Below are positions 3,805 through 60,772 of a stretch of DNA of 64,000 nt, one piece after another. This stretch comes from Candidatus Aldehydirespirator sp. GTDB taxonomy: Bacteria; Actinomycetota; Acidimicrobiia; Acidimicrobiales; Aldehydirespiratoraceae. The stretch lies in contig OZ242033.1 of NCBI GenBank assembly GCA_965205155.1, positions 2,299,572-2,363,571 on the forward strand, given 5' to 3'. The position numbers were made by a program, and so were the translations under genes. Each line of letters opens with the position of its first letter. Position 1 is the first letter of the stretch. The notes under the pieces are model-generated. The model was given only the letters and a program-made list of their open reading frames with translations, made no database searches and was not told the DNA's origin.

Positions 3805-3858
3805 CGAAGCTACCCGTCGGGTGCGGCCGTCACGGCGCCGCGGCTCGGGGGCCGTGTT

Positions 3859-3907
3859 TCCCGCTCTTGTTCGCTGCGCTCACGGGCCGCTCGGGCCACG
3901 GCCTCGC
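3859..3907 (-). repeat. Dispersed ~50-nt core repeat, copy A (sense on minus strand)
   Basis: The reverse complement reads GCGAGGCCGTGGCCCGAGCGGCCCGTGAGCGCAGCGAACAAGAGCGGGA, near-identical to the copies at 9743, 12117, 21399, 21451 and 25452. Confidence 0.9.
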
Positions 3908-3933
3908 TCAGAGTCTCGCGAGACACACATGAA

Positions 3934-14463: not shown

Positions 14464-14565
14464 GAACGAGCCTGATGGCAAGGTTCTCTCCTCTCTTCGC
14501 GGCGAGACCCGTGGACTGTAGCTTTCGCAGTGTGATCGAGGCGTTGATGTGATCGAGGCAGCAGT

Positions 14566-15318
14566 GTGATCGAGACATTCGCGCCGGCGAAGCTGACGCT
14601 GAGTCTGCGGATCACCGGGGTCCGGCAGGACGGCTACCACGAGGTCGACGCCGAGATGGTGACCCTCGATCTTGGGGATCGTCTCGAGATCACCGAGGGC
14701 GGGTCCGGTGTGCGAATGCTCGATGGGGTGGGGACCGAACTCCACGGCGTGGCCGGGCCCGGCGAGAACCTGGTCGAGCGTGCGCTGGTCCTGGCCGGGC
14801 GCCGGGCGGGGGTCACGGTGCACAAGCGGATCCCGATCGGTGCCGGGCTCGGGGGCGGATCAGCCGACGCGGCCGCGGTGCTGCGCTGGTCCGGGATCAC
14901 CGACACGGTGTCGGCCGCATCCATAGGCGCGGACGTGGCGTTCTGCCTTGCGGGCGGCCGAGCCCGGGTGACGGGCATCGGCGAGATCATCGAGCCGCTG
15001 CCCTACCTGTCCGAGCAGTACACCCTGTCGCTGGCACCAGTGGGATGCGACACCGCGGCCGTGTACGCGGCCTGGGACGAACTGGGGGGCCCTGCCGGCG
15101 AGCACGGCAACGACCTGGAAGCCGCGGCTCTGCGGGTTGTCCCGGAGTTGGCGGCCTGGCGCGACGAACTGGGCAACGCCACCGGGCTGACCCCGAGGCT
15201 GGCAGGAAGCGGCAGCACCTGGTTCGTCGGCGGTGCCCACCCGGGTCCGGGCCGCGTCGTGACCACGACCACCAGGCGGTCGCCCGACCAGCCTGAGGAG
15301 TGCGAGCGCGGCGTGTAG
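14566..15318 (+). CDS. ispE: 4-(cytidine 5'-diphospho)-2-C-methyl-D-erythritol kinase
   Basis: APAKLTLSLRITGVRQDGYHEVDAEMVTL and KRIPIGAGLGGGSADAAAVLRW (GHMP kinase motif). Confidence 0.92.
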   Translation: MIETFAPAKLTLSLRITGVRQDGYHEVDAEMVTLDLGDRLEITEGGSGVRMLDGVGTELHGVAGPGENLVERALVLAGRRAGVTVHKRIPIGAGLGGGSADAAAVLRWSGITDTVSAASIGADVAFCLAGGRARVTGIGEIIEPLPYLSEQYTLSLAPVGCDTAAVYAAWDELGGPAGEHGNDLEAAALRVVPELAAWRDELGNATGLTPRLAGSGSTWFVGGAHPGPGRVVTTTTRRSPDQPEECERGV

Positions 15319-26509: not shown

Positions 26510-27738
26510 GTCAGCAGAGCGACTTGGTCCGGGAGCCGGGCCGCGGCGGCTCCGATCCGATCGACGTGGCCGTGGGATTCGCCGGCGCGCTGCGCCGGGC
26601 CGGTCTGGAGGTCTCGCTCACCTCCGCGCTGCTCTACTCGGAAGCACTGTCGGTTTGCGACGTCACCAGCCGCGAGTCGCTGTACTGGGCCGGCCGGTGC
26701 GCGCTGGTCCACCGCTTCGAGGACGTCGGGGTGTACGACGCCGTCTTCGGGGCCTACTGGCTGGGCAAGCCCCTGGGCACGGTCTCACCCACCACCGCGG
26801 TGAGCATCCCGGTGGTGCTGCAGGTCGACGACGCCGGCGACGCCGCCACCGACGAGGAGGAGCCCGGCCGCGACTCCGATGTGATCACCGTTCGCTACAG
26901 CGCCACCGAGACCCTCGCTACCAAGGACTTCGCCGACTACACCGACGATGAGCTCGAAGAGGCCCGCCGGCTGATGGAGCGGCTGAGGTTCCGCAGCCCG
27001 ACTCGGCCCAGCCGCCGTCTCGAGCCGGCCCGGTCGTGCCGGGGCCGCCTGGATGTGCGGCGCACGGTACGGGCCGCCATGCGCTCGGGGGGCGAGCCCA
27101 TGCGCATGCACCGCCGGGTCAGCGGCCGCAGGCCCCGGCGCCTGGTGCTGCTGCTGGACGTGTCGGGGTCGATGGAACGCTACGCCCGGGCTCTACTTCG
27201 CCTGGTCCACGCCGCAGTCGCGGGCCGCAGCCGGGTCGAGGCCTTCGCTCTAGGCACCCGGCTCACCCGGCTCACCCGGGAGTTGTCGTCGCGCGATCCG
27301 GACCGGGCCCTGCGGGCCGCGTCGGATGCAGTCCCCGATTGGAGCGGCGGCACCCGCCTCGGCTCGGGCCTGCGGTCATTCAACGACGAGTGGGGCTGCC
27401 GGGGGATGGCTCGCGGCGCGGTGGTGGTGATCCTCTCCGACGGCTGGGACCGGGGCGATCCGGCCGAGATGTCCGAACAGATGCAGCGCCTCCGCAGGGT
27501 CGCCAATCGGGTGGTGTGGGTGAATCCCCTCAAGGCCTCGCCGGGGTATGCCCCCCTGGCGCGGGGGATGGCCGCGGCCCTGCCGTTCGTGGACGACTTC
27601 GTGGAGGGGCACAACCTGGAGTCGTTGGAACGGTTGGCCGAACTCGTCCTCACCGAGACCGGTCACCGCTCGCGGGGGCCGCGGCCGCACACCGCGGATG
27701 AGGGTCCGGTTCCAGTAGCCGTGGGAGCGGGACAGTGA
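26506..27738 (+). CDS. VWA domain-containing CoxE-like protein
   Basis: LVLLLDVSGSMERYARALL (MIDAS DxSxS), GTRLG, VVILSDGWDRGDP, VVWVNPL. ATGA overlap with moxR. Confidence 0.85.
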   Translation: MSQQSDLVREPGRGGSDPIDVAVGFAGALRRAGLEVSLTSALLYSEALSVCDVTSRESLYWAGRCALVHRFEDVGVYDAVFGAYWLGKPLGTVSPTTAVSIPVVLQVDDAGDAATDEEEPGRDSDVITVRYSATETLATKDFADYTDDELEEARRLMERLRFRSPTRPSRRLEPARSCRGRLDVRRTVRAAMRSGGEPMRMHRRVSGRRPRRLVLLLDVSGSMERYARALLRLVHAAVAGRSRVEAFALGTRLTRLTRELSSRDPDRALRAASDAVPDWSGGTRLGSGLRSFNDEWGCRGMARGAVVVILSDGWDRGDPAEMSEQMQRLRRVANRVVWVNPLKASPGYAPLARGMAAALPFVDDFVEGHNLESLERLAELVLTETGHRSRGPRPHTADEGPVPVAVGAGQ

Positions 27739-27764
27739 AGGGGATCCGGCAGTGAAGGAGATCC
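27731..27764 (+). repeat. 17-nt tandem duplication of the coxE-stop/xdhC-start junction
   Basis: gacagtgaaggggatcc / ggcagtgaaggagatcc (15/17). Mini-ORF GTG 27735..TGA 27755 (VKGIRQ*) ends on the xdhC GTG at 27752. Confidence 0.85.
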
Positions 27765-28867
27765 TCGCCGACCTGGATCGCTGGCGGTCGGGCGGGGAGC
27801 GGGCCGCGGTGGCCCGGGTCGTCGACCTCGAAGGGTCGGGACCGCGCGCTCCCGGCGCGGCGATGGCCGTCACCGCTGAGGCCGAGGTCGTCGGCTCGGT
27901 GTCCGGCGGCTGCGTGGAGGGCGCGGTAGTCACCGAGTCCCTCGAGGTGATCGCTACCGGCGACCGGCGCATCGTCACGTTCGGCTACAGCGACGATGAG
28001 GCCTTCGCGGTCGGGCTCACCTGCGGGGGGACCATCCACTTGTTCGTGGAGCCCCTGGACTGGGGCCCGGTCCATGACGAGCTGGGCTCGGATCTCGCCG
28101 CCGAGTCCCCAGCCGCGCTGGCCACCGTGGTCGAGGGCCCCGGAACGGGCGCCAAGATGCTGGTGCGCCCGGAGGGTCTGGAGACCGTCGGCTCGCTGGG
28201 CAAGCCGGGCCTCGACCGGGCCGTGCAGCGCGACGCCCGCGGCGAGCTGGTCGCGGGCCGTTCGGGCCTGCGCCGCTACTCCACCCACGGCGAGTACTCC
28301 GAGCAGGGCGAGACCTGCGGCGAGGAGGTGGCCGTGTTCGTGGAGTCGTTCGCCCCGCCGCCCCGGATGCTGATCTTCGGCGCGGTGGACTTCACCTCCG
28401 CCCTGGCCCGGGTGGCCAAGGTGCTCGGCTACCGGGTCACGGTGTGCGACGCCCGGTCGGTGTTCGCCACCTCCAAGCGGTTCCCGATGGCCGACGAGGT
28501 GGTGGTCTCATGGCCCGACCGGCTGCTCGACGCAGTGGGGGAGCACCTCGGCCCGCGTGACGCGGTGTGCGTGCTCACCCACGACGCCAAGTTCGATGTG
28601 CCCGCCATCACCTCGGCTCTGGCCACCGATGTCGGCTACATCGGGGTGATGGGCAGCCGCCGCACCCACGACGACCGCACCGGCCGGCTGGTCGAGGCCG
28701 GGGTGACCGGCGAGCAGCTGGCTCGCCTCCGCTCGCCCATCGGCCTCGACATCGGCGCGGCCACCCCCGAGGAGACCGCGGTCTCCATCGTCTCGGAGAT
28801 CATCTCGCTGCGCACCGGCCGCCAGGCCCAAGCTCTCTCAGCCACCACCGGCCCCATCCACGACTGA
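27752..28867 (+). CDS. XdhC/CoxF-family molybdenum-hydroxylase maturation protein
   Basis: AAVARVVDLEGSGPRAPGAAMAV...GSVSGGCVEGAVV (XdhC_CoxI N domain) and a Rossmann-like C-terminal half, LIFGAVDFTSALARVAKVLGYRVTVCD. Confidence 0.85.
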   Translation: MKEILADLDRWRSGGERAAVARVVDLEGSGPRAPGAAMAVTAEAEVVGSVSGGCVEGAVVTESLEVIATGDRRIVTFGYSDDEAFAVGLTCGGTIHLFVEPLDWGPVHDELGSDLAAESPAALATVVEGPGTGAKMLVRPEGLETVGSLGKPGLDRAVQRDARGELVAGRSGLRRYSTHGEYSEQGETCGEEVAVFVESFAPPPRMLIFGAVDFTSALARVAKVLGYRVTVCDARSVFATSKRFPMADEVVVSWPDRLLDAVGEHLGPRDAVCVLTHDAKFDVPAITSALATDVGYIGVMGSRRTHDDRTGRLVEAGVTGEQLARLRSPIGLDIGAATPEETAVSIVSEIISLRTGRQAQALSATTGPIHD

Positions 28868-30972: not shown

Positions 30973-31451
30973 CCACCGCCACCTCCGGCGACGACTACGA
31001 GCAGGTGGCGCAGCTCCTGGGCCGCCCGCCGGCCGGCGATTTCGAGGTGGTGGTCCGGGACGCCTCGGGGTGCCCTGCAGTGATCCGCAACGCTCCGATC
31101 CTGGCCGGCGGGCGGCCCATGCCGACCCGCTACTGGCTGGTCGACGAGCATCTGCGACGCCTAGTCGGGCAGCTGGAGTCCGACGGCGGGGTACGGGCCG
31201 CGGAGGCGGCCGTCGACGCCGCGGAACTGGCCGCGGCCCACGCTCGCTACGGGGCCGAGCGTGACGCAGCCCTGCCCGGCGACCACGACGGGCCGCGTCC
31301 GTCTCACGGCGTGGGGGGCACCCGCCACGGAGTCAAGTGCCTGCATGCCCACTATGCGTGGCATCTGGCCGGCGGCAACGACCCGGTGGGCCGCTGGGTC
31401 GCCGAGCGCCTCGGACCGAGCGCGGCGGCATCCCTTCGGAGGGTGCTGTGA
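30969..31451 (+). CDS. DUF501 domain-containing protein
   Basis: QVAQLLGRPPAGDFEVVVRD...PTRYWLV...GVKCLHAHYAWHLAGGNDPVGRWV. GTGA overlap with the mazF stop. Confidence 0.8.
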   Translation: MTTATSGDDYEQVAQLLGRPPAGDFEVVVRDASGCPAVIRNAPILAGGRPMPTRYWLVDEHLRRLVGQLESDGGVRAAEAAVDAAELAAAHARYGAERDAALPGDHDGPRPSHGVGGTRHGVKCLHAHYAWHLAGGNDPVGRWVAERLGPSAAASLRRVL

Positions 31452-31471
31452 CCGGGAGGGTGCTGTGACCG
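31438..31471 (+). repeat. Exact 17-nt tandem duplication (ggagggtgctgtgaccg x2) of the DUF501-stop/ppx-start junction
   Basis: Copies at 31438-31454 and 31455-31471. Mini-ORF GTG 31448..TGA 31468 (VTGRVL*) ends on the ppx GTG at 31465. Confidence 0.95.
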
Positions 31472-32382
31472 GTGGTCCAGTGGCCGTGGTGGACTGTGGC
31501 ACCAACACCACCCGGCTTCTCATCACCGGCGGCCGGGAGCCCGCGGCCGCCAGGCGCTCGGAGATAACCCGCCTGGGGAGGGGCGTGGACGCCACCGGCC
31601 GCCTTGATCCCTCCGCCGTCGAGCGCACCCTGGAGTGTCTGAGGGAGTACCGGCGGGCCATCGACGGGCACAACCCGACCGCGGTCAAGGTCATCGCGAC
31701 CTCCGCGGTGCGTGACGCGGCCAACCGGTCGGAGTTCCTGGAGCCGGCCGAGAGGATCCTCGGCGCGGCGCCTGAGGTCCTGTCGGGACGCGAGGAGGCC
31801 GAGACAGCCTTCCGGGGCGCGGTCAGCGACTTGGACCCGGCCGAGGGCCCGTATCTGGTCGTAGACATCGGAGGCGGGTCCACCGAGCTGTCCTTCGGCG
31901 AGCGTCACTGCACCGATGCGCTGTCGCTCGACATCGGCAGCGTGCGCCTGACCGAGAAGTACATAGATCACGACCCGCCCCTGCCCGAGGAGCTGTCGGC
32001 GTGCCTGTCCGTCACCGAGCTTCATCTCGACGACGCGGTGCGGGCTGTTCCCGCCCTCGCCGGGCCCTGCCGGCTGGTCGGTGTGGCCGGGACCATCACG
32101 ACCGTCGCGGCGGTGGAGTTGGGCCTGGCGACCTACGACCGGGATCGGGTCCATCACTTCAGGCTGTCGAAGGACGCGGCCGAGGACGTGTTCCGGACCC
32201 TGGCCACCGAGGCGCTCCCCGACCGGGTCCACAATCCCGGTCTGCACCCCGGCCGGGCCGACGTGATCGTGGCCGGAGTCTGCATCCTGGTGATGATCAT
32301 GCGGTACTTCGACTTCGACGAGTGCCTGGTGTCGGAGGCCGACCTGCTCGACGGCCTCGCCCTGTCGCTGCTCGAAGCCTGA
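31465..32382 (+). CDS. ppx: Ppx/GppA-family exopolyphosphatase
   Basis: VAVVDCGTNTTRLLI, DIGGGSTEL and GVAGTITTVAAV (ASKHA fold motifs). The GTG 31465 start lies in the second copy of the 17-nt duplication. Confidence 0.88.
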   Translation: MTGGPVAVVDCGTNTTRLLITGGREPAAARRSEITRLGRGVDATGRLDPSAVERTLECLREYRRAIDGHNPTAVKVIATSAVRDAANRSEFLEPAERILGAAPEVLSGREEAETAFRGAVSDLDPAEGPYLVVDIGGGSTELSFGERHCTDALSLDIGSVRLTEKYIDHDPPLPEELSACLSVTELHLDDAVRAVPALAGPCRLVGVAGTITTVAAVELGLATYDRDRVHHFRLSKDAAEDVFRTLATEALPDRVHNPGLHPGRADVIVAGVCILVMIMRYFDFDECLVSEADLLDGLALSLLEA

Positions 32383-46051: not shown

Positions 46052-49000
46052 TCATGGTGTCGATCGGGGGGTGGTGGCGGCCCATCGGATGGTGCTGGGC
46101 GACGCGAGGTGGTAGGGGCTCCAGCAGTCGACGGTGCCGTCGGTGCGCAGCCCGCAGGAGTGCTGCTCGCCGGTGGAGAAGCTGCGGAAGGTGCCTGCGA
46201 GGCGCACCATGTAGTCCGACGGGGTCCATCCCCAGCAGATGACGGCGCCGCCGGTGCGCAGCCCGCACGAGTGGCCCCGTCCGGTCGAAACGGCGCTGAA
46301 GGGTCCGGTGACCGTGAAGCCGTCGGGGTCGGCGCCTAGGCCGCCCCAGCATTCGATGTCGCCGCCGGCGGCGACCCCGCAGGTCTGCCACACGCCGGCG
46401 GAGACCGCGCTGAAGGAACCCTCGGGCGCGTCCAGTTGGTGGTCCCGGTTGCTGCCCCAGCACTCGACGGCGCCGTCGGTGCGCAGCCCGCAGGAGTGGT
46501 CCTCGCCTGCCGACACCGCGCTGAAGGCCCCGTCGGGCGCGTCGGCCTGGCCGGAGTAGTTCTTGCCCCAGCACTGCACTGTGCCGGCCGGGTCCAGCCC
46601 GCAGGTGTGGAACGCGCCCGCGGAGACGGCGGTGAAGGCTGCCGGCGGCGGGTCGGACTGCCCGTAGTTGTTGCCGCCGCGCAGGTTGGTCCAGCACTCG
46701 ACAGCGCCGATGGAGAGGATCCCGCAGGTGTGCACGTAGCCCGCGGAGACGGCGGTGAAGGCTGCCGGCGGCGGGCCGGTTCCCGCGGTGCGGTCATGCC
46801 AGCATTCGACGGCGCCGCCGGGGCGCAGCCCGCAGGTGTGGTCCCTGCCGGCCGAGACCGCGACGAACTCGCCGGGGGGCGGCTCGCTCGCCGCGGCGTC
46901 GTTGTGGCCCCAGCAGGACACGGACCCGTCGGCGTGGACCCCGCAGGCGATCGTGCTGCCGACCGACACCGTCGTGTAGCGGCCGGGGGCGGGGACGAAG
47001 CCGGGCCAGAAGTCGTTGATGGCTCCGAGGACGTCCTGGCCCCAGCAGATCACGGAGCGGTCTTCGCGGACCGCGCAGGAGTGGTACTCGCCGGCCGCGA
47101 CCGCCACGAACGTTCCCCGGGGGCTGTTGGCCTGGCCGTACTGGCCGTTGCCCCAGCATTCGACGGTCCCGCCCGCGGCGAGGCCGCATGCGTGCTCGTG
47201 GCCGGCCGACACGGCGGTGAACGCCCCGGCGGGCGGGTCGATGCCGGCGCGGGTGCCCCAGCACTCGACGGCGCCGCTGGGGCGCAGCCCGCAGGCGAGA
47301 TACCGGCCGGTGGAGATCTCGCTGAAGCGTCCCTGGGGCGCCTGGGCGTCCCAGATGGACGTGTCGCCCCAACACTCCGCGGTGGCGTCGCTGCGCAGCC
47401 CGCAGGTGTGCCAGGTCCCCGCCGACACCTGCGTGAAGGCCCCTTCCGGCGGGGCGAGCCGCCCGTCGTGGTCGTCGCCCCAGCATTCGACGGCGCCGCC
47501 GGCGCGCACTCCGCATGAGTGCCACCAGCCGGCCGACACCGACACGAACTCGCCCGAGGGTGCGAAGGCCTTTCCGTACTCGTTGTTCCCCCAGCACGCC
47601 ACCGTTCCGTCCGCGGACAGGCCGCAAGCGTGGGAATCGCCGGCGGAGACCGACTCGAAGCGGGTCACCTCGCGCACCGCGTACACGGCGACAGCCTCGC
47701 CCGAGTCGGCCACCGTCTTGGCGGCGGTTGCGCCGTCGTCGGGCTCGGCCGGGGGCTCGCCGGACCCCGCGCCGGGGTCCGGCGGCGTGAACCAGCGCAC
47801 GAACGGCGGCGCCGGCGTCCACGGGGGGCTCCAGCAGATCAGGGCGCCGCCGGTGCGAAGCCCGCAGGAGTGCCCGCCGCCCGCCGACACGGCGCTGAAG
47901 GCGCCCGCCGGTGCGTCGGCCTGGCCCTCGTCGTTGTTGCCCCAACACGTCAAGGTCTGGTCCGATCTCACGGCGCAGGTGTGGTCGGCCCCGGCGCTGA
48001 CCGACGCGAACGTGCCCGCCGGTGCGTCGCTCTGGCCGTGGTCGTTGTCGCCCCAGCAGTTCAGCGCGCCGTCAGCGTCGAGCGCGCACGAATGCTGCGA
48101 GCCCGTCACCACCGCGCTGAACGTGCCCGGCGGTGCGTCGCTCTGGCCGTGGTCGTTGTCGCCCCAGCATTCGACGGCGCCGCCGGGGCGCAGCCCGCAG
48201 CTGTGGAGGGCGCCCGCCGACACCGAGGCAAAGGCGCCCGCCGGTGCGTCGCTCTGGCCGTGGTCGTTGTTGCCCCAGCATTCGATGTCGCCGCCGGTGC
48301 GCAGCCCGCAGCTGTGGAGGCCGCCGGTCGACACCGAGGAGAAGGTGCCCGCGGGCGCGTCGGCCTGGCCCGTCTCGTTGTATCCCCAGCATTCGACGGT
48401 GGCGTCGGTGCGCAGCCCGCAGTGATGCCAGCCGCTGGAGGTCACCGCGCTGAAGGGACCCGCCGGAGGCTCGTCGAGGATGCCTGGGGGCGGTTCGCTG
48501 TCGTAGAGATCGATGTGGCCCCAGCATTCGACGGTGCCGTCGGGGCGCAGCCCGCAGGAGCGGTCCGATCCCGCTGACACCTCGGTGAAGGCGCCGTGGG
48601 GCGCAGCGACCCGCGCGAACAGCGTCGGGTCACCGCCCCAGCATTCCACGGTGCCGTCGGTGCGCAGCCCGCACGAGAAGAAGAGTCCGGTGGCCACCGC
48701 GGTGAACGCTCCCGCCGGCTCGTCGTCGAAGTCCCAGCATTCCACGGTGCGGTCGGTGCGCAGCCCGCAACTGTAGGTCGAGCCCGCGGAGACGTCGGTG
48801 AAGGCCCCCTCGGGCGGCTGGATCCCGTCGCCGCCGTCGCCCCAGTCGAAGAGGTCCCACTCGGAGTCTCCCCAACAGGCGATCGTCTCGTCGCTGCGCA
48901 GACCGCAGGAGTAGGCGGTGCCGGCAGAGACCCGGCTGAAGGCCCCGCCGGGCGGGTCGGCCTGGCCGTAGTCGTTGTTGCCCCAGCACTCGACGCCACC

Positions 49001-50068
49001 GCCGGCGCGCAGCCCGCATGTGTGCGCTTCACCGGCGGCCAAGTCGATGAAGCTGCCCTCGGGTTCGTCGGCTTGGCCCTCGTCGTTGTCGCCCCAGCAC
49101 TCGACGGCGCCGCCGGGGCGCAGCCCGCAGCTGTGGATCCCGCCGGCGGCCACAGCGCTGAAAGCCCCAGCAGGCGGGCTGGCTTGGCCGTAGTCGTTGT
49201 TGCCCCAGCATTCGACGGCGCCGCCGGCGCGCAGCCCGCAGTTGTGGACGCCGCCCACCGCGACCGACATGAACGACCCCGCTGGGGCCTCGGCGGAGCC
49301 GAAGAGGTTGTTGCCCCAGCATTCGACGCCGCCGTCGGCGAGGATCACGCAGCCGTGGGCGTAGCCCACCGCGAGAACCCTGCCCCCGACAGGATCGGGG
49401 ACCATCGCCGCCGCGGTGTCAGTCGACTGTGCGCCGCCAGCCTCAACGCGGCCATCGGTGTCCGGCGCCGGGTCTGGTTGTCGGCTGTCGGTGTCCGGGC
49501 CCCGGTCTGGTTGCCGGCCGACGGTATCCGGGTCCGGAGCAGGATCCTGGCCGTCGGTGTCCGGGTCCGGAGCAGGATCCTGGCCGTCGGTGCCCGGGTC
49601 CGGAGCAGGATCCTGGCCGTCGGTGCCCGGGTCCGGAGCAGGATCCTGGCCGTCGGTGCCCGGGTCCGGAGCAGGATCCTGGCCGTCGGTGCCCGGGTCC
49701 GGAGCAGGTTGCTCGCCGGCAGTCCCGTCGCTGGTCCCGGTACCGGCGATGTTGCCGTCGCGCTGGTCGGCTCCGACTTCCCCGGCGAGCTGGGACCCAT
49801 CGCGGGAACCCACCGCGCCGTCGGACCCGCAACCGGCGGCGAGGACCGCAGCCGCCACCGCGGCCGCCGCGGCTCTCGCGAGCCGAACTCGCCGACTCGT
49901 GCGGGTCCGAGAGGATGTCCTCGACTCCGTTGGCGCACGGACCCCGGTGACGCAACGAACACGGGACCCCAGCACCCGATCCGCCCGTCGGTGCCCAGCC
50001 CGCAACAGTGGACGCCGCTGCTGTCGGGGTTGTCGCTCCCCACGCCGGACGTGGCGAACAAACCCCAC
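46052..50068 (-). CDS. Giant RCC1-repeat (beta-propeller) lipoprotein, 28 blades
   Basis: 28 occurrences of the H-x-C-G-L-R-x-D/G-G-x-V-E-C-W-G blade signature, counted in the translation. N-terminal SRRVRLARAAAAAVAAAVLAAGCG (twin-Arg-like, lipobox). Start uncertain (GTG 50068 or GTG 49975). Confidence 0.85.
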   Translation of the reverse strand: MGFVRHVRRGERQPRQQRRPLLRAGHRRADRVLGSRVRCVTGVRAPTESRTSSRTRTSRRVRLARAAAAAVAAAVLAAGCGSDGAVGSRDGSQLAGEVGADQRDGNIAGTGTSDGTAGEQPAPDPGTDGQDPAPDPGTDGQDPAPDPGTDGQDPAPDPGTDGQDPAPDPDTDGQDPAPDPDTVGRQPDRGPDTDSRQPDPAPDTDGRVEAGGAQSTDTAAAMVPDPVGGRVLAVGYAHGCVILADGGVECWGNNLFGSAEAPAGSFMSVAVGGVHNCGLRAGGAVECWGNNDYGQASPPAGAFSAVAAGGIHSCGLRPGGAVECWGDNDEGQADEPEGSFIDLAAGEAHTCGLRAGGGVECWGNNDYGQADPPGGAFSRVSAGTAYSCGLRSDETIACWGDSEWDLFDWGDGGDGIQPPEGAFTDVSAGSTYSCGLRTDRTVECWDFDDEPAGAFTAVATGLFFSCGLRTDGTVECWGGDPTLFARVAAPHGAFTEVSAGSDRSCGLRPDGTVECWGHIDLYDSEPPPGILDEPPAGPFSAVTSSGWHHCGLRTDATVECWGYNETGQADAPAGTFSSVSTGGLHSCGLRTGGDIECWGNNDHGQSDAPAGAFASVSAGALHSCGLRPGGAVECWGDNDHGQSDAPPGTFSAVVTGSQHSCALDADGALNCWGDNDHGQSDAPAGTFASVSAGADHTCAVRSDQTLTCWGNNDEGQADAPAGAFSAVSAGGGHSCGLRTGGALICWSPPWTPAPPFVRWFTPPDPGAGSGEPPAEPDDGATAAKTVADSGEAVAVYAVREVTRFESVSAGDSHACGLSADGTVACWGNNEYGKAFAPSGEFVSVSAGWWHSCGVRAGGAVECWGDDHDGRLAPPEGAFTQVSAGTWHTCGLRSDATAECWGDTSIWDAQAPQGRFSEISTGRYLACGLRPSGAVECWGTRAGIDPPAGAFTAVSAGHEHACGLAAGGTVECWGNGQYGQANSPRGTFVAVAAGEYHSCAVREDRSVICWGQDVLGAINDFWPGFVPAPGRYTTVSVGSTIACGVHADGSVSCWGHNDAAASEPPPGEFVAVSAGRDHTCGLRPGGAVECWHDRTAGTGPPPAAFTAVSAGYVHTCGILSIGAVECWTNLRGGNNYGQSDPPPAAFTAVSAGAFHTCGLDPAGTVQCWGKNYSGQADAPDGAFSAVSAGEDHSCGLRTDGAVECWGSNRDHQLDAPEGSFSAVSAGVWQTCGVAAGGDIECWGGLGADPDGFTVTGPFSAVSTGRGHSCGLRTGGAVICWGWTPSDYMVRLAGTFRSFSTGEQHSCGLRTDGTVDCWSPYHLASPSTIRWAATTPRSTP
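49460..49715 (-). repeat. 33-nt tandem coding repeat (five identical units 49528-49692 plus degenerate flanking units) encoding PAPDPGTDGQD
   Basis: ccgggtccggagcaggatcctggccgtcggtgc repeats exactly from 49561 to 49692. The unit at 49528 differs only at its last base. Confidence 0.9.
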
Positions 50069-52011: not shown

Positions 52012-52067
<56 letters not shown>

Positions 52068-54610: not shown

Positions 54611-55765
54611 TTGACCGATGTGAACATTGAGGACGGCCCCGAGGGCCAGGCCGGGGCCGCGCCGGTGGCGGCGACGGCGGAGAAGTCCCGGCGCGGGCTG
54701 CCGGACTCGACCAAGCGGATCCTGTTGATCCTCGCGGGCGTGGTGGTGCTCGCGGGCAGCGTCTACGGCTTCTACTACACCTCCGACGCCTTCGACGACC
54801 GGGTGCCGGTGCTGGTGTCGGCCAGGCGCATCGAGGCGGGCGAGGCGCTGAGCTCCGCCGATTTGACCTCGGACCGGGTGCTGGTCGGGTCGATCCCCCA
54901 CATCGCGTGGACGCCGGACGCTCCGTTCGCGTTCGAGGGCATGGTGGCCACCCAGCCGATCCCGCAGGGCGCGCTCGTCAGCTACGAGATGGTCAAGCTG
55001 GACGAGACCCCCACCGACGGCGTCGTGCTGGAGCTGGACATACCGCTCGATCTGATCATGGCCACCGACGCGGTGGCCGAGGGCGACCCGGTGCTGCTGG
55101 TCGATCCCGGAGCGCCGCCGGTGCCCGGCGACGACGGCCGGCCGCGGCAGGTGGTGCGCCAGTTCGAGCTCACCAACTTCGACGGCTCGCGGATGCAGCT
55201 GTTCCTGGCGCCCGAGGAGTGGGCCGAGTGGGAGGAGCTGGTCGAGGAGGCGGGCGGAACGCTGATGATCGTCGACCTCGAGCTGGGCGACGACGCCGAC
55301 GACGCCGAGGCGCGGCTCAACGCGGTGTGGCAGGCCCAGTGGGACGAGGCGGTGGCCGAGCTGGCCGAGTCGCTGGCCGAGGCGGCGCCCACCGCCGGGC
55401 CGGGCGAACTCGAGATAATCGTGGCCCTCGACGACGGCCTGGTGCCCTCGGGCGTGTCCGAGGGCGACACCGTGCTGCTGGTCGACCCCGGCGAGGCGCC
55501 CGAGGGCAACGACTCGGGCCGTCCCATGGAGGTGATCGGCCTGCTGGAGCTCGACAACTACGCCGACGGCGTGATCCAGATGTTCGTGCCGCCCGAGGAG
55601 TGGCACTACTGGCTCACCCTGCCGGTGCTGCTCGGCGCCGACCCGCTGGTGCTGCCGGTGGCCGAGGGCACCGACGTGGACGACATGGCCGCCCGCCTCA
55701 ACGCCGAGTGGCGGGCCGCCTGGGAGGCCTTCGCGGCCGCGGCCCTGGCGCCGGAGCCGCAGTGA
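54611..55765 (+). CDS. cpaB: CpaB/RcpC-like pilus assembly protein (TM + SAF domain) with internally duplicated C-terminal module
   Basis: TTG 54611 with AGGAGG 8 nt upstream. ILLILAGVVVLAGSVYGFYY TM helix. VPVLVSARRIEAGEALSSADL is SAF-like. Two homologous ~110-aa modules (GDPVLLVDPG...EEWAEWEEL / GDTVLLVDPG...EEWHYWLTL). Confidence 0.7.
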   Translation: MTDVNIEDGPEGQAGAAPVAATAEKSRRGLPDSTKRILLILAGVVVLAGSVYGFYYTSDAFDDRVPVLVSARRIEAGEALSSADLTSDRVLVGSIPHIAWTPDAPFAFEGMVATQPIPQGALVSYEMVKLDETPTDGVVLELDIPLDLIMATDAVAEGDPVLLVDPGAPPVPGDDGRPRQVVRQFELTNFDGSRMQLFLAPEEWAEWEELVEEAGGTLMIVDLELGDDADDAEARLNAVWQAQWDEAVAELAESLAEAAPTAGPGELEIIVALDDGLVPSGVSEGDTVLLVDPGEAPEGNDSGRPMEVIGLLELDNYADGVIQMFVPPEEWHYWLTLPVLLGADPLVLPVAEGTDVDDMAARLNAEWRAAWEAFAAAALAPEPQ

Positions 55766-55882
55766 CCGTCGCCCGCCCGGTTGGGGAGGCGCCGTGCTAG
55801 CGGTGGTCGCCGTCGGGGGCGCAGTGACGGTCGTCCGCTGGGTTGGGGAGGCGCCGTGCTAGCGGTGGTCGCCGTCGGGGAC
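55759..55882 (+). repeat. 62-nt tandem duplication (57/62) of the cpaB-stop/tadZ-start junction
   Basis: Units 55759-55820 and 55821-55882. Each contains cagTGA, GGGGAGG and GTGCTAGCGGTGGTCGCCGTCGGGG. Confidence 0.9.
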
Positions 55883-56890
55883 GCGCAGCTCGATGCCGGG
55901 TCGGTCGGGCTGGCGGTGGCCCGCCGCTGGAGCGACTCCGGCGAGGGGGTGCTGTTCGTGGACGCCGACGCGGCCGGCTCGGGCCTGGCGCAGCGTCTCG
56001 GCGAGGCCGACCGCGCCGAGTACTCGCCCGCGGTGCGGGGCCTGCCGTCGCTGATGGTGGCCCGCGAGCCGGTCACTCTCAGGCTGCTGGCGGACCATTG
56101 CTACAGCCTCGACACCTCCGGCGGGTCGCTGTGGGCGCTGCTGGCGCCGTCGCACCCCGCGGGCGCGAGGCGCGCCGCCGCGTGGCTCGGCCAGAGCGCC
56201 GCCGGCTTGAGGGCCGTCGACGTCGAGCGCCGCGTGGTGGTGTCGTCGTCGCTGCCGGCCGCCGCCGACCCGGTGGTGCCGCTGCTGAAGGCGGCGCGGA
56301 TGGTGACAGTGCTGGCCCCCGTCGAGTCCGCCGACGCCGCCAAGGCGCTCTGGACGGCGTGCAGGGACGCCGGGCTGCACGGCTTCGACCGGGGCCTGCG
56401 GGTGCTGATCGTGGAGGGCGAATCGCCCCTCGACGACGACGACCTGCGAACCGAGACGGGCATGGTGGTGGCCGGGAGGCTGCCGGCCGTGCCCGACGAC
56501 AGGCTGCTGCGGCTGCAGGGCGGGCGCCGCGACCGGGCGTTCATCAAGAGCCTCGACAGGATCTCCGCCCGGCTGCTGGAAGCGTCCAAGCTCGACGCCG
56601 ACCGAGGCGCCGGACCCGGCCGCGAGCCGGACGCACAGGCCCCGCCCCAGCCCGAGCCCGCCCCCCAACCTCAGCGCGTGCCCACAGGCCATCCCCAGCC
56701 CGTGTCCACAGGCTCCGCGCCCGGCGGCTCGGTACCGGCGCGGCCCGAGCCGCGCCCGCAGCCGGTCCCGCCGGCGCGCCCGCCGGGGCCGTCGCCCGCC
56801 GGGAGTGTGACGGCGCCGGGACAGCACGCCCCGGAGCAGGGGCTCGAGGCCCCCGGCCGGAGCCGCGCAACCCGCCGCGGGAGGTTCTGA
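55856..56890 (+). CDS. TadZ/CpaE-like ParA-fold protein with degenerate P-loop and Pro-rich tail
   Basis: GTG 55856 in the second duplication unit. VLAVVAVGDAQLDAGSVGLAVARRWSDSGEGVLFVDADAAGSGLAQRLG aligns with the MinD/ParA N-terminus, but KGGxGK is replaced by GDAQLDAGS. Confidence 0.55.
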   Translation: MLAVVAVGDAQLDAGSVGLAVARRWSDSGEGVLFVDADAAGSGLAQRLGEADRAEYSPAVRGLPSLMVAREPVTLRLLADHCYSLDTSGGSLWALLAPSHPAGARRAAAWLGQSAAGLRAVDVERRVVVSSSLPAAADPVVPLLKAARMVTVLAPVESADAAKALWTACRDAGLHGFDRGLRVLIVEGESPLDDDDLRTETGMVVAGRLPAVPDDRLLRLQGGRRDRAFIKSLDRISARLLEASKLDADRGAGPGREPDAQAPPQPEPAPQPQRVPTGHPQPVSTGSAPGGSVPARPEPRPQPVPPARPPGPSPAGSVTAPGQHAPEQGLEAPGRSRATRRGRF

Positions 56891-56892
56891 CG

Positions 56893-58488
56893 ATGGTGCT
56901 GCGCGAGGAGATCTGGGAGGCGGTGCTGCCGGAGGTGCGCGAGTTCCGGCTGACCGCCGACGACGAGGACGAGTCGGAGGCCTGCCAGCGGATGGCCGTC
57001 GCCGCCATCCGGACCCGCGAGGCCCGGGCGCTCGACAGCACCGGCGAGATGCTCTCCGACGAGGACCTGGAGTGGGTGTTCGACCAGCTCTCCGCGCTGC
57101 TGGGGGCCGGCCCCATGCAGCGGTTCCTGCGCCGCCGCGACGTGGAGAACATCTACGTGTTCGGGCCGAACTATGCGGTGCTGGGCCTCACCGGCGGGCG
57201 CCAGGAGCATGTGCGCGAGCCGGTGTTCGCCGACGAGGACGAGATGGTCCGCTACATCGCCCACCTGGCCACCACCCACGGCCAGACCGGCCGCCGCTTC
57301 GACCAGTCGGCGCCGCTTTTGGACCTGCGGCTGCGCACCGGCGAGCGCATCTTCGCGGCGATGGCGGTGTGCGGCACCCCGTTCCTGACGGTGCGCTGCC
57401 ACCGCCAGCGGACCATCCGGCTCGAGAACCTGGTGGAGAGCGGGTCGCTGTCGCAGCAGGCCGCCGACTTCCTGCGGGCCGCGGTGCGCCCCCCGGCGCC
57501 GGTGAACATGCTGGTGTGCGGCGCGCTCGGCGCGGGCAAGACCACCCTGCTGCGCGCCCTGCTGGCCGAGATCGGCCCCTCTGAGATCGTGTGCACCCTC
57601 GAGCAGACCTTCGAGCTGTTCCTGGACCAGTCCCATCCGCTGACCTTCGCGGTGGAGACCCGCGAGGCCAACAGCGACGGCTCAGGCGAGATCACCATGG
57701 AGGAGCTGGCCAAGCGGTCGCTGCGCTCGGGCGCCGACCGGGTGATCGTGGGCGAGCTGCGCGGCTCGGAGGCGGCCACGTTCCTCTCCGCGTGCGGCAC
57801 CGGGTCCGACGGCTCGATGGCCACCATCCACGCCTCCTCTCCCCGCCAGGCCATGGCCCGCCTGGTGCGCTACTGCCTCGGCGCCATCGGCGCGCCCGCC
57901 CAGTCGGCGCTGGTGCAGGAGGCCTCCGAGGTGATCCACCTGGTGGCGCACCTGCGGGGCGACCCCCGCACCGGGTTCCGGGGCGTGAACACCATCTCGG
58001 AGGTGCTCAGCTCCGACGGCGACCGCTTCGAACTGCATGACGTGTTCGGGCGCCGCCAGCGCGGCGGCCCCATGACCCTGCTCGGCCGGCCCCGCAGCCC
58101 CGAGGTGATCGAGCGCCTCGCCGAGGGCGGTCTCGACATCTCCGACTGGCCCGAGCACGGCGACGACGCCGACGCGGGGGGCCGGTCCGCGCGGCCGCGG
58201 GCCTTCCCCGGCGACGGTCCTGACGACGGCGGCGACGACGCCGACGCGAGGGGCCGGTCCGCGCAGCCGTGGGCGGTTCCCGGCGACGGCTTCGGTGATG
58301 ACCTCGGCGACGACGCCGGCGCGGGGGCGGGGGGCCGGTCCGCGCGGCCGTGGGCCTTCGGGGGCGATGGTCCTGACGACGGCGGCGACGACGCCGGTGC
58401 GGGGGGCCGGTCCGCGCGGCCGTGGGCGGTTCCCGAGGGCGGCTTCGGTGATGACCTCGGCGACCGCATCTGGCCCGAGGACGGCTGA
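56893..58488 (+). CDS. tadA: CpaF/TadA-family secretion ATPase with repeat-containing acidic C-terminal tail
   Basis: ATG 56893 within track ORF 55843..58488. LVCGALGAGKTTLLRAL Walker A, DRVIVGELRGSEA Walker B region, GSMATIHASS His box. Confidence 0.88.
   Translation: MVLREEIWEAVLPEVREFRLTADDEDESEACQRMAVAAIRTREARALDSTGEMLSDEDLEWVFDQLSALLGAGPMQRFLRRRDVENIYVFGPNYAVLGLTGGRQEHVREPVFADEDEMVRYIAHLATTHGQTGRRFDQSAPLLDLRLRTGERIFAAMAVCGTPFLTVRCHRQRTIRLENLVESGSLSQQAADFLRAAVRPPAPVNMLVCGALGAGKTTLLRALLAEIGPSEIVCTLEQTFELFLDQSHPLTFAVETREANSDGSGEITMEELAKRSLRSGADRVIVGELRGSEAATFLSACGTGSDGSMATIHASSPRQAMARLVRYCLGAIGAPAQSALVQEASEVIHLVAHLRGDPRTGFRGVNTISEVLSSDGDRFELHDVFGRRQRGGPMTLLGRPRSPEVIERLAEGGLDISDWPEHGDDADAGGRSARPRAFPGDGPDDGGDDADARGRSAQPWAVPGDGFGDDLGDDAGAGAGGRSARPWAFGGDGPDDGGDDAGAGGRSARPWAVPEGGFGDDLGDRIWPEDG
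58159..58470 (+). repeat. Four 72-78-nt coding repeats (GDDADAGGRSARPxAxPGDGxxDD) at the TadA C-terminus
   Basis: ggcgacgacgcc recurs at 58159, 58231, 58306 and 58384. The peptide repeats are visible in the translation. Confidence 0.85.
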
Positions 58489-58489
58489 G

Positions 58490-58564
58490 ATGGCGGAGGC
58501 CCCGATCATCGGCGCGCCGGACGCGACGGGCTCCGGATCGGTGCGGGCGGGGGCATCGGGATGA
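58490..58564 (+). other. 24-aa leader mini-ORF; diverged duplicate of the tadB start
   Basis: ATG 58490 lies 1 nt after the tadA TGA. MAEAPIIGA... parallels tadB MIEGLIFGV... Its TGA (58562-58564) overlaps the tadB ATG at 58561. Offset 71 nt. Confidence 0.6.
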
Positions 58565-59469
58565 TCGAGGGCCTGATCTTCGGTGTGCTGGCCACCGCCG
58601 GGCTGGCCCTGGTGGCGCTGTCGGGTGCGCTCAGCCGCCTCCGCGTCCGCCGCAAGGACCAGGACCGCGACGGCAGGGCGGCTCACGCCGCGGCGCGGCG
58701 CGCCTCGGCCAAGGCCACCGGCGCCCAGCGGATCAGCCCGCTGATGGCGGTGCAGCTGGTGGCGGCCGTCGCCGGCGGGATCCTGGGCTGGACCGCTACG
58801 GGCCTGCTGGGGATGATGGTCCTGCTGGGCGGGCTGGGCGCCCTGCTGCCGCCGTTCATGGCCGCGCCCGCCCGCCGGCGCCGCCAGACCCGCCAGGCGC
58901 TGGCGTGGTCGCTGTGGAGCCGCCAGCTGGCCGAGCTGGCCCGGGCCGGCTCGAGCCTGGTCGAGTCGCTGCGCGGCAGCGTCGAGCACGCCCCAGCCGA
59001 GATCACAGCCACCGTCGAGCACGTCGCGGTCACCGCCGAGCTCGAAGGCCTCGAGGAGGCCCTCGACAGCCTCGCCGCCGCCGGCACGGTGTGGGAGCCC
59101 GAGGTGGCCGCCGGCCTGCGCGTGGCCGCCACCTCAGGCGGCGCGGTGGCCGATCCGCTGTTCGACCTGTGCGGCCGCATCGGCGACGTGGTCGACCTGC
59201 ACCGCTCCAAGACTGAAGCTGTGGTTCAGCTTTGGACCCAGACCATCGCGCTGCTGGGCCTGGCCGGCGGGGTGGTGCTGTTGATGTACCGCAACAACCC
59301 GGCCTACTTCGAGCCCTACGAGCAGGGCACCGGCCAGCTCGTGTTCGTCGGCATCGCGGGCCTGCTGCTGCTGTCGACGTCGTTTCTGGTGTACCACTCG
59401 GTGGTCCGCACCGAGAACTCGGTGCTGGTGCCGCCCCGCCGCCGCAGCCGGGCCAAGGACCCGATATGA
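58561..59469 (+). CDS. tadB: TadB-like type II secretion system F-family membrane protein
   Basis: N-terminal TM helix. T2SSF-like region LWSRQLAELARAGSSLVESLRGSVEHAP...GGAVADPLFDLCGRIGDVVDLHRSKTEAVVQLW. C-terminal TM helices. Confidence 0.65.
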   Translation: MIEGLIFGVLATAGLALVALSGALSRLRVRRKDQDRDGRAAHAAARRASAKATGAQRISPLMAVQLVAAVAGGILGWTATGLLGMMVLLGGLGALLPPFMAAPARRRRQTRQALAWSLWSRQLAELARAGSSLVESLRGSVEHAPAEITATVEHVAVTAELEGLEEALDSLAAAGTVWEPEVAAGLRVAATSGGAVADPLFDLCGRIGDVVDLHRSKTEAVVQLWTQTIALLGLAGGVVLLMYRNNPAYFEPYEQGTGQLVFVGIAGLLLLSTSFLVYHSVVRTENSVLVPPRRRSRAKDPI

Positions 59470-59539
59470 GCCCGCGTTCCACCCGGCAGGAAACGCCATG
59501 AGCCCGCGTTCCACCCGGCAGGGGACGCCATGAGCCCGC
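59466..59539 (+). repeat. 32-nt tandem repeat x2.3 at the tadB-stop/tadC-start junction
   Basis: atgagcccgcgttccacccggcagg(aa/gg)acgcc at 59466 and 59498 (30/32), and a third copy atgagcccgc starting tadC at 59530. This gives two 11-aa mini-ORFs, MSPRSTRQ(E/G)TP*, each ending in an ATGA overlap. Confidence 0.95.
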
Positions 59540-60351
59540 TGGTGCTGGGGGCCGCGCTGGCGTTCTTCGCCGGGGTGGTGCTGATCGCGGTCGGCGTGGT
59601 GGGGCCGCCGGAGCGCAGCCGCAGGTCGCAGACCCCCGGCGAGACGCTGCGCGACCTGCTGCCCACCATCAAGGAGGGCGACGAGCAGAACCTGCGCCTG
59701 GCCGGCATCACCCCGGAGTCGTACTCGCTGCAGCGCTTCGGCGGCCTGGTGGTCGGCTTGGCCGTCGGCGCGGTCATCAGCGCGGCCACGGGACGGGGCC
59801 TGGTGGGGGCGGCGCTGCTGTCGGTCGCCGCCGGCGCGGCCGGCTGGGTGCTTCCCATGCTGGGCGTGCGCGACACCGCCAAGAAGGCCCGGGCCGAGAT
59901 CGACCAGGTCATCAGGGTGTGGATCGCGCTGGTGGCCCAGCAGGTGTCGGCCGGGGTGGACCCGTCGGTGGCGATGCTGGCCGCGGCCCGGGTGGGGGAG
60001 CGCAACAGCTGGCGGCTGCTGCACCGGTTCCTGCTCGCCGCGCAGCAGGACCGCCGCCCGGTCTGGGAGGGCCTGGGCGACATGGTCAGCCGCTACGGCA
60101 TCCACACCCTTGCCCCGGCGGTCTCGGCGCTGGGCCTGGCCGCGGAGCGGGGCACCCGCATGGCCGAGGCCATCCTGGTGGCCGCCGACACGCTGTGGCG
60201 CGACGGCACCTCCCGCGAGCGCGAGAAAGCGGCCCGGCGGGCCCAGATCATCGTGGTGCCCGCCACCGGCGTGGCCCTCGCCTTGGCCGGCATCCTCGTC
60301 TACCCGCCGTTCACGTCGCTCACCGGCGGCGGCATCACCAGCCTGCCGTGA
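59530..60351 (+). CDS. tadC: TadC-like type II secretion system F-family membrane protein
   Basis: N-terminal TM helix, then IDQVIRVWIALVAQQVSAGVDPSVAML...AVSALGLAAERGTRMAEAILVAADTL (T2SSF-like) and a C-terminal TM helix. Confidence 0.65.
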   Translation: MSPLVLGAALAFFAGVVLIAVGVVGPPERSRRSQTPGETLRDLLPTIKEGDEQNLRLAGITPESYSLQRFGGLVVGLAVGAVISAATGRGLVGAALLSVAAGAAGWVLPMLGVRDTAKKARAEIDQVIRVWIALVAQQVSAGVDPSVAMLAAARVGERNSWRLLHRFLLAAQQDRRPVWEGLGDMVSRYGIHTLAPAVSALGLAAERGTRMAEAILVAADTLWRDGTSREREKAARRAQIIVVPATGVALALAGILVYPPFTSLTGGGITSLP

Positions 60352-60373
60352 GGCCCGCACCGTGAGCGCCGCC
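60346..60373 (+). repeat. 14-nt tandem duplication (11/14) of the tadC-stop/pilin-3-start junction
   Basis: ccgtgaggcccgca / ccgtgagcgccgcc. Mini-ORF GTG 60348..TGA 60365 (VRPAP*) ends on the pilin-3 GTG at 60362. Confidence 0.6.
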
Positions 60374-60772
60374 GCCGACGCCGGCCTCATCACCCTGGAG
60401 TGGCTCCTCATCGTGGGCGCCGTCGCGGGCCTGGCCGCGTTCTCGGTGCTGGCTGTGCAGCGGGTGATCGACGACACCGCCGAGGCGCCCGCCGACCCGG
60501 TGGTGCGCCTGCTGGAGGCCGACATAGCCGCCGCCTTCGTGGCCTCCGACGCCCAGGCCGACTTCGACGCGGCGGTCAGCGCCGGGAACCCGTCCTCCTA
60601 CGTGGACGGGAACTTCTCAAGTCGCTGCACCGGCGTCCGGACCGACTTCGGCGATGTAGTCGCGAACACGGTCTGGACGCCGCCTGCAGACTCGGGCACG
60701 CCGGCCAATCTCGACGACGACGTGCCCGCGAGGTGCGTGGTCACGCCACAATCGGCGGGCTTGGGGGGCTAG
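60362..60772 (+). CDS. Pilin-like protein 3 (short leader VSAAADAG/LITLEW)
   Basis: GTG 60362. LITLEWLLIVGAVAGLAAFSVLAV, then a ~100-aa domain with a Cys pair (SRCTGVRTDFGD...ARCVVTPQ). Confidence 0.65.
   Translation: MSAAADAGLITLEWLLIVGAVAGLAAFSVLAVQRVIDDTAEAPADPVVRLLEADIAAAFVASDAQADFDAAVSAGNPSSYVDGNFSSRCTGVRTDFGDVVANTVWTPPADSGTPANLDDDVPARCVVTPQSAGLGG

Follow-up and report, generated by a model that had tools for sequence, protein, structure and literature searches.

Overlapping mini-ORFs between tadB and tadC of an acidimicrobial Tad operon: a probable duplication of the coupling junction

The junction between tadB and tadC, two adjacent genes of a Tad pilus operon, was analyzed in a 64,000-nucleotide stretch of Candidatus Aldehydirespirator sp. 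(assembly GCA_965205155.1, contig OZ242033.1, positions 2,299,572 to 2,363,571 of the forward strand), hereafter the window, which has a G+C content of 70%. At this junction the genes are separated by two tandem units of 32 nt, each carrying an 11-codon open reading frame (ORF) that begins on the preceding stop codon and ends on the following start codon. This chain of overlaps looks biologically meaningful rather than coincidental, and it probably represents a recent local tandem duplication of the tadB/tadC coupling junction, whose peptides would be by-products and whose relay hand-over of ribosomes would be maintained. Comparison with related genomes points to selection acting on coupled translation rather than on the peptides, and a duplication that was tolerated because coupling was kept appears to fit the evidence better than a dedicated regulatory device.

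The tandem array between tadB and tadC

The tadB gene (58561..59469, forward strand; 302 aa, recognized from the ORF list, Pfam PF00482 and 46 homologous loci) ends with ...AAG GAC CCG ATA TGA, and its stop codon (TGA, 59467-59469) shares bases with an ATG at 59466-59468 that is made by the rare ATA codon. This ATG opens mini-ORF 1 (59466..59501, forward strand; MSPRSTRQETP, 11 codons), whose TGA at 59499-59501 falls on the ATG at 59498, which opens mini-ORF 2 (59498..59533, forward strand; MSPRSTRQGTP, 11 codons), whose TGA at 59531-59533 falls in turn on the ATG of tadC at 59530. The tadC gene (59530..60351, forward strand) would encode a T2SSF-like paralogue of 273 aa and was given its start by homology, as MSPLVLGA... 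aligns from residue 1 in relatives (tblastn). An ATGA overlap is present at all three links (59466-69, 59498-501 and 59530-33), that is, the four-nucleotide stop/start overlap by which termination-reinitiation coupling is recognized. The chain running from tadB through two 11-aa mini-ORFs to tadC had been described in a first-pass annotation of this DNA, and every sequence statement made there about it was confirmed by the sequence and its translation. The annotation also proposed a 32-nt repeat unit sharing its beginning with tadC, which was equally borne out: the units at 59466-59497 and 59498-59529 are identical at 30/32 positions, the sole difference being AA at 59491-92 against GG at 59523-24, and the first 10 nt of the unit, ATGAGCCCGC, recur at the tadC start at 59530.

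Tandem Repeats Finder (TRF) describes the array at 59466-59539 as a 32-nt unit in 2.3 copies with 95% matches and a score of 134, and the 28-nt core of the unit occurs twice in the window compared with 0 times in 100 shuffles. A repeat search also detected a slid register in which the array begins at 59456, within tadB, with AGGACCCGAT ATGAGCCCGC... facing AGGAAACGCC ATGAGCCCGC... at 88% identity. As the array slides back into tadB, the repeated module is therefore a Shine-Dalgarno (SD)-like GGA, a spacer of 4-6 nt, ATGA and the first tadC codons, in ~2.6 copies; with the module written as GGA-spacer-ATGAGCCCGC-..., the full array spans 59456..59539 on the forward strand (TRF, repeat search and shuffle control).

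An SD-like AAGGA (59455..59459, forward strand) lies in the tadB tail, 6 nt 5' of the ATG at 59466 (sequence, junction listing and anti-SD duplex energies), and this site is kept as AAGGAyCCG in nearly all relatives. Similar elements stand inside mini-ORF 1 ahead of the ATG at 59498 (AGGAAA, 59488-59493) and inside mini-ORF 2 ahead of the tadC ATG (AGGGGA, 59520-59525). Over the restart codons, the mean anti-SD duplex energy is -5.7 vs -4.1 kcal/mol in the background, a modest difference. The first-pass annotation held that ribosomes finishing tadB must terminate and reinitiate three times to reach tadC. The chain of overlaps that this supposes is present, but an obligation is too strong a claim: an SD-like GGA stands 4-6 nt ahead of every restart codon, so ribosomes might load there de novo as well.

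The origin and working of the array can be envisaged as follows. In the ancestor, the tadB stop and the tadC start would have shared one ATGA, so that a ribosome ending tadB would restart on tadC. An insertion in this lineage, later doubled into two 32-nt units, would then have left the genes 64 nt apart. In E. coli and Haloferax volcanii, experiments show that termination-reinitiation works only across an overlap or a very short gap and is almost lost at ~20 nt (PMC6728339, PMC10666635); the 64-nt distance would normally abolish it too, and an untranslated insert would uncouple tadC from tadB. Because the unit measures 3n+2 nt, the 11-codon ORF of each ATG stops exactly on the next ATG. The spacer would be translated and ribosomes would be passed from tadB to tadC over two short links, with a weak SD at each link allowing some de novo loading as well, and the maintained features would be the phase, the stop/start overlaps and the SD-like element. 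It has been described that short ORFs are able to bring ribosomes to a coupled gene (PMC12548453), that stop/start overlaps are enriched among subunits of one (heteromeric) complex (PMC6728339, PMC10666635), and, as a proposal for Mycobacterium tuberculosis, that tight coupling guards against premature Rho-dependent termination (bioRxiv 10.1101/2022.06.01.494293). The likely gain would be a coupled stoichiometric synthesis of both platform paralogues and/or a continuous ribosome cover of the operon mRNA.

Folding of 59430-59580 gave a minimum free energy no better than that of shuffled sequences (z = +0.58), and no consensus structure was found in 16 direct-overlap junctions. A conserved hairpin, suggested by 17-nt imperfect inverted repeats that pair the SD regions with tadC codons 10-15, was not supported by these two results. 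An Rfam scan of the region returned a sub-threshold chance match only, and a consensus scan of 58400-60500 for sigma-70-type promoters and intrinsic terminators found 0 promoter-like and 0 terminator-like sites.

Inserts at the junction in related genomes

The window belongs to a genome from a sponge-associated member of the Acidimicrobiia, and its nearest relatives are likewise sponge-associated Acidimicrobiia metagenome-assembled genomes of Ca. Aldehydirespirator and Ca. Poriferisodalis, the closest of which (L001) has a TadB 96% identical to that of the window. The comparison started with 46 genome loci, and more were added by a TadC protein search and contig look-ups. In ~36/46 genome loci, tadC starts directly on the tadB stop (ATGA, GTGA or TGATG), an arrangement made possible by CTG or one of the rare codons ATA and CTA just before the TGA; on the sequences compared, this is the ancestral, classically coupled state. 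Seventeen loci including the window hold an insert at the junction, and they belong to at least eight lineages by a rough TadC tree. This comparison, which the first-pass annotation had put forward as a check, supported the relay: 15/17 inserts are tiled exactly by one or more ORFs running from the tadB NTGA to the tadC RTGA, every link measuring 2 mod 3. In addition to the window (insert of 2x32 nt, bridging ORFs of 11 + 11 aa), these are L001 (44 nt, 15 aa), L002 (152 nt, 51 aa), L003 (92 nt, 31 aa), L006 (74 nt, 25 aa), L010 (71 nt, 24 aa), L012 (122 nt, 41 aa), L022 (89 nt, 30 aa), L032 (140 nt, 47 aa), L053 (125 nt, 42 aa), L054 (59 nt, 20 aa), L055 (62 nt, 21 aa), L057 (68 nt, 23 aa), L058 (122 nt, 41 aa) and L059 (56 nt, 19 aa). 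Insert lengths within the two larger clades differ by multiples of 3 (32/44/92/125/152 in one and 59/68/71 in the other), and in L003, where a 19-nt sub-unit has a period of 1 mod 3, two such units together preserve the relay.

Under a null model in which spacers were shuffled and phase was randomized, the probability of a relay is 0.23-0.33 per locus. Relays at tadB-tadC number 15 against 4.6 expected (p ~4e-6 with loci taken as independent), and when counted by lineage the relay is kept in 7-8/8 (p = 2.5e-3 to 1.5e-4). Links and inserts are distributed as 15 at 2 mod 3 vs 1 at 1 mod 3 (p = 2.6e-4). In the proposed mechanism, an insert of 3n+2 nt would give an unbroken chain of overlaps and one of 3n nt an extension fused onto TadC, while after an insert of 3n+1 nt, ribosomes setting off from the retained ATG would cross the tadC start in the wrong frame. 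That 3n+1 inserts are nearly absent is what purifying selection on ribosome hand-over predicts, and it is predicted equally by selection on ribosome cover against Rho-dependent polarity. It is also conceivable that the insert is a neutral and untranslated scar, with tadC starting from its own SD and in-phase mini-ORFs arising by coincidence in a spacer of ~80% G+C with few stops. This explanation gains from the SD-like element ahead of tadC, from bridging ORFs that lack a coding signature, and from the fact that, given the right phase, open frames are near-automatic in GC-rich spacers (P ~0.3, nearly all from the 1/3 phase term). It was nevertheless considered clearly improbable in view of the phase bias itself, the same bias at a second junction of the operon (X-Y, described below) and in 6/6 arrays of the window, the retention of the rare ATA codon behind the overlapping ATG, and the behavior of generic spacers in relatives: in two 20-kb loci, bridging was seen in 0/8 other co-directional spacers ≥15 nt long, which have ordinary SD-led starts. 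The reinitiation chain is thus far supported by comparative evidence.

The bridging sequences show a different pattern of conservation from the overlaps that flank them. The features kept are a start codon on the tadB stop, a stop on the tadC start, the 3n+2 phase of each link, and a GGA-containing motif 5-9 nt ahead of each restart codon. Between lineages the bridging peptides show no relationship, and their lengths over the bridged junctions run from 5 to 64 residues; the G+C contents of the pooled bridging ORFs at the first, second and third codon positions are flat (0.85/0.78/0.82, vs 0.76/0.52/0.95 in tadB). The inserts therefore evolve like non-coding DNA that is constrained in reading phase alone. 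Functional micropeptides, either the 11-residue products or the longer bridging peptides of relatives acting in pilus assembly, would be favored by the likeness of the peptides within clades (an MSVPTP... family and an MSPP... family), yet this likeness matches the close relatedness of the genomes; with peptides that are not conserved between lineages and show no codon-position bias, the idea was rejected as very improbable.

As for the source of the inserts, their tails are copies of the tadB 3' end, most clearly in L055 (...CGGGCCAAGGACCCGCTGTGA) and L003 (AAGGACCCGCCATGA) and recognizably in the window, so the inserts go back to duplications of the junction. The unit core was not found elsewhere in the 64-kb window (≤3 mismatches) or in 59 related loci. 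Among the sequences compared (the window and the fetched loci), inserts match only orthologous inserts or tadB tails, which argues that there is no dispersed mobile family. A mobile or dispersed repeat, that is, a true mycobacterial interspersed repetitive unit (MIRU), was accordingly rejected, no further copy being present in the sequences searched.

The first-pass annotation considered what would follow if the unit number varied, and it does differ among close relatives, with 2x32 nt in the window, 1x44 nt in L001 and none in most genomes; the tail of mini-ORF 2, CGGCAGGGGACGCC, is identical in alignment to the single 44-nt insert of L001. Variants within the same strain were sought by exact-protein look-ups for TadC and TadB, which returned no match, and a metagenome scan gave only a duplicate of the L003 insert and direct-overlap loci.

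Several observations weigh against a maintained relay. Every restart codon has its own SD-like element, so tadC could start independently and the relay be merely harmless, and the tadC starts were assigned by homology. The loci are phylogenetically related, which means that the p-values overstate their independence, and the neighbor-joining tree used to count lineages is a rough one built from a single protein of 273 aa (TadC). Two of the 17 inserts depart from the pattern: L056, from the insert family of L010, L054 and L057, carries instead a 72-nt in-frame N-terminal extension of TadC, and L020 has a plain, unbridged spacer of ~205 nt (3745-3949). In L020, tadB ends in CTC TGA and the overlapping start is lost. 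Its spacer may be a different kind of insertion, an element resembling repetitive extragenic palindromes or miniature inverted-repeat transposable elements. It contains a palindrome (TTCCGGCAGAGGCCGGAA), and 35 nt are shared at 94% with an unrelated site of L028 near a 19-nt tandem array. Finally, the two-unit state occurs only in this window, which would also be expected if the second unit were spurious and had been created by the assembler or by long-read error. Such an artefact is most unlikely, considering that the units differ at two positions and are hence no stutter copy, that independent assemblies of relatives hold homologous inserts with the same head and tail, and that multi-copy junction arrays are present in other assemblies (four copies in L001 and two in L019).

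The Tad operon and relays at further sites

On the forward strand, tadB is preceded by gene X (54611-55765, SAF/CpaB-like), gene Y (55856-56890, starting at GTG 55856 and without a family match) and tadA (56893-58488, a TadA-type ATPase with a T2SSE match of 92 bits), and tadC is followed by a pilin-like gene (60362-60772, VSAAADAGLITLEWLLIV...) that was recognized from its N-terminal sequence and given a predicted GTG start. The ATPase also matches the TadA-family model TIGR03819 (E=1.5e-58, under the cut-off of that model). TadB matches Pfam T2SSF (PF00482) with 29.7 bits, over the gathering score of 25.2, and TadC reaches 19.3 bits (E=0.0012), which is under the cut-off; many TadC homologues carry PF00482. 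With a T2SSF domain in both and a TadA-type ATPase beside them, it is reasonable to regard the two as Tad/Flp platform proteins, the labels TadB and TadC being given by gene order only. A mechanical ORF call at 55843-58488 (881 aa) overextends tadA: the gene really begins close to ATG 56893, and a separate gene occupies 55856-56890 in a different frame. At its C-terminus, TadA has a tail (58158-58464) that carries in-frame tandem repeats (72 nt x 3.7 and 153 nt x 1.9, 91%) rich in Gly, Asp, Arg and Pro, an unusual extension for a TadA-type ATPase.

The relay architecture of tadB-tadC is also found at three further junctions of the operon, so that relay ORFs occupy 4/5 junctions of the Tad pilus machinery, and at three sites elsewhere in the window. 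Between X and Y lies an array of a 62-nt unit in 2.0 copies (55758..55884, forward strand; TRF, translations and a strict relay walk). The X stop (TGA, 55763-65) overlaps a GTG at 55762 that opens a 12-aa ORF, the TAG of this ORF (55798-800) overlaps the GTG at 55794 of a 22-aa ORF, and the TAG of the latter (55860-62) overlaps the Y start GTG at 55856, the links being joined through GTGA and GTGCTAG. A conserved GTGCTAG stands at the start of gene Y in the window (55856-55862) as well as in L002, L003, L004, L006, L008, L009, L012-L015, L019, L022 and L023. The rare CTA leucine codon places a TAG in the overlapping frame, at which upstream bridging ORFs of 12-64 aa end, and this codon may be retained for that stop. 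X-Y is bridged in 12/16 loci with spacers longer than 20 nt (p ~8e-4). L001 carries four tandem copies of the 62-nt unit (22-279) in a four-link chain of 12+22+22+22 codons, compared with two copies in the window, a difference of the kind seen in variable number tandem repeats (VNTRs) between genomes that are ~96% identical in TadB.

At tadA-tadB, genes that are adjacent in most relatives, a bridging ORF of 24 aa (MAEAPIIGAPDATGSGSVRAGASG; 58490..58564, forward strand, from the translation) starts 1 nt past the tadA stop (TGA, 58486-88) and ends with a TGA (58562-64) that shares bases with the tadB ATG at 58561. This ORF is also present in L001. The automated survey of tadA-tadB was noisy where TadB N-termini fail to align and serves only anecdotally; on that footing one link each was seen in the window, L001 and L012, and two in L019. 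L019 in fact holds independent two-link chains at X-Y and at tadA-tadB, the latter derived from a 71-nt duplication. At tadC-pilin, a 5-codon ORF (VRPAP; 60348..60365, forward strand; TRF and sequence) has a GTG overlapping the tadC TGA (60349-51) and a TGA overlapping the putative pilin start, GTG 60362. It arose from a 14-nt x 1.9 duplication common to L001 and L002, and is weaker evidence because the downstream start is a predicted one.

All three 17-nt arrays outside the operon form GTGA-chained mini-ORFs. At 14526-14574, the start region of an IspE-like gene (GTG 14566, VIETFAPAKLTL...) is present in triplicate as a 17-nt unit in 2.9 copies (GTGTGATCGAGG...), which creates two 6-codon upstream ORFs (uORFs), VIEALM and VIEAAV, chained by GTGA; with no upstream gene on that strand, this is a uORF chain in a 5' leader and not an intercistronic relay. 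At 31438-31472, identical copies of a 17-nt unit (x 2.1, GGAGGGTGCTGTGACCG) produce the mini-ORF VTGRVL, which lies between the end of one gene (31451) and GTG 31465, where a Ppx/GppA-like gene starts. At ~27733-27766, an imperfect 17-nt x 2 repeat (CAGTGAAGGGGATCCGG / CAGTGAAGGAGATCCTC) yields VKGIRQ at a junction where one gene stops at 27738 and the next begins at GTG 27752. Altogether, six tandem arrays stand at start sites or junctions of the window, and all their periods are 2 mod 3 (17, 17, 17, 14, 32 and 62 nt). A low-threshold TRF census yielded 39 arrays with a period of 2 mod 3 vs 23 with 1 mod 3, mostly weak intragenic ones, only the strong junction arrays being informative.

These copy-number differences bring back the suggestion of the first-pass annotation that the units could set the TadB:TadC ratio stepwise. 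Read as an evolvable rheostat or contingency locus, the array would change its unit number by slippage between the 10-nt repeats; each further link would alter the share of ribosomes arriving at tadC, and copy number would thereby adaptively set TadB:TadC stoichiometry or pilus expression. Copy number does differ between related species (0, 1 or 2 units at tadB-tadC, and 2 vs 4 at X-Y), the perfect 10-nt flanking repeats are a substrate for slippage whose contraction would restore the ancestral ATGA precisely, and several such arrays lie within 64 kb. But the array has merely 2.3 copies, diverged at two adjacent positions, and purifying selection against out-of-phase inserts accounts for the same data without adaptive tuning, which makes the rheostat rather unlikely. 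Equally tentative, and doubtful to a similar degree, is the wider proposal of a genome-wide VNTR-like class in these sponge-associated Acidimicrobiia, in which recurring 3n+2 duplications of an initiation module (SD, NTGA and first codons) would expand and contract through their flanking repeats and, as rheostats, adjust relative translation within operons reversibly and step by step. A tolerated duplication of the coupling junction remains the preferred explanation for the tadB-tadC array.

Other repeats were recorded in the same survey. A perfect (TC)x21.5 dinucleotide microsatellite at 52015-52057 is unusual for a bacterial genome of this G+C content and possibly slippage-prone. On the reverse strand, the long ORF at 46052-50068 has, over 46343-49708, several blocks in which a 111-nt repeat recurs (73-78% identity), together with an array of 33 nt x 5.8 (98%; 49516-49708); its product is probably a large surface protein of repetitive make-up. 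In two relatives, large young arrays follow the tad genes, one in L028 (5717-6325, 122 nt x 5.0, 95%) and one in L022 (6046-6254, 74 nt x 2.8, 95%); both have several open frames, and neither forms a relay chain.

Known systems and significance

By analogy, the junction element would work like MIRUs, as an intercistronic version of NUGA-coupled uORFs and as a natural counterpart of bicistronic designs. MIRUs (Supply et al. 1997), in the accounts given in PMC3184786 and PMC12548453, are units of 40-100 bp, often in tandem and in variable number, between operon genes. According to the same accounts, the ends of the MIRU ORF overlap the flanking stop and start with a -4 spacing, so that insertion barely affects downstream translation, and MIRUs form a dispersed family at about 40-50 loci that is thought to be mobile. 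The likenesses are several: short tandem units between presumably co-transcribed genes of a high-G+C actinobacterium, with a copy number that differs between related species, an intercistronic position, an internal ORF overlapping the stop and start of its neighbors, and a flanking tetranucleotide repeat, here NTGA. In contrast to MIRUs, the unit measures 32 nt instead of 40-100 bp, its host belongs to the Acidimicrobiia (Ca. Aldehydirespirator nearest) and not to Mycobacterium, it is confined to this junction among the sequences searched and does not form a dispersed family, and it is visibly built from the junction itself (tadB 3' tail, ATGA and tadC codons).

The NUGA/URRUG-coupled uORFs and ORF pairs of M. 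tuberculosis (bioRxiv 10.1101/2022.06.01.494293) resemble the present case in that 4-nt overlaps tie short ORFs lacking conservation to one another as well as to annotated genes, and the ribosome hand-over proposed there, as for termination-reinitiation generally (PMC6728339, PMC10666635), is the same. Those are, however, mostly 5'-leader uORFs or plain pairs, whereas intercistronic fillers derived from a duplicated direct overlap are found here, and the evidence is comparative phase conservation instead of ribosome profiling. Synthetic bicistronic designs and translational-coupler cassettes (ref. 78 in PMC12548453, as outlined in that article) likewise use a short ORF that holds the SD of the next cistron and ends on its start codon, and ribosomes are delivered or unmasked whatever the downstream sequence. 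The element described here differs from them in being natural and arranged in series (two links), and the folding tests detected no structured start site needing to be unfolded.

The single locus is of modest interest; more interesting is the wider pattern of phase-locked throw-away ORFs at many formerly overlapping junctions, together with their differences in copy number. Overlapping stop/start coupling is widespread, and the evidence for its active maintenance has so far come mostly from reporter assays in few model organisms. The inserts amount to a natural experiment: in at least eight lineages and at several junctions, inserts in coupled junctions survive almost only at lengths that a throw-away ORF bridges codon-perfectly. 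The bridging sequence itself evolves freely. Such a pattern would allow selection on ribosome hand-over to be read from comparisons alone. A rule for annotation also follows, namely that such mini-ORFs should not be called genes, nor the gap be taken as untranslated. Local duplication of a junction, instead of transposition, may be a general origin of MIRU-like intercistronic repeats. Were the genome-wide VNTR-like class real, it would be a non-mobile, intrinsic equivalent of MIRUs, in which nature runs a population-scale experiment on termination-reinitiation, and if copy number tunes expression, these arrays would offer uncultured symbionts a simple and reversible way to adjust subunit ratios.

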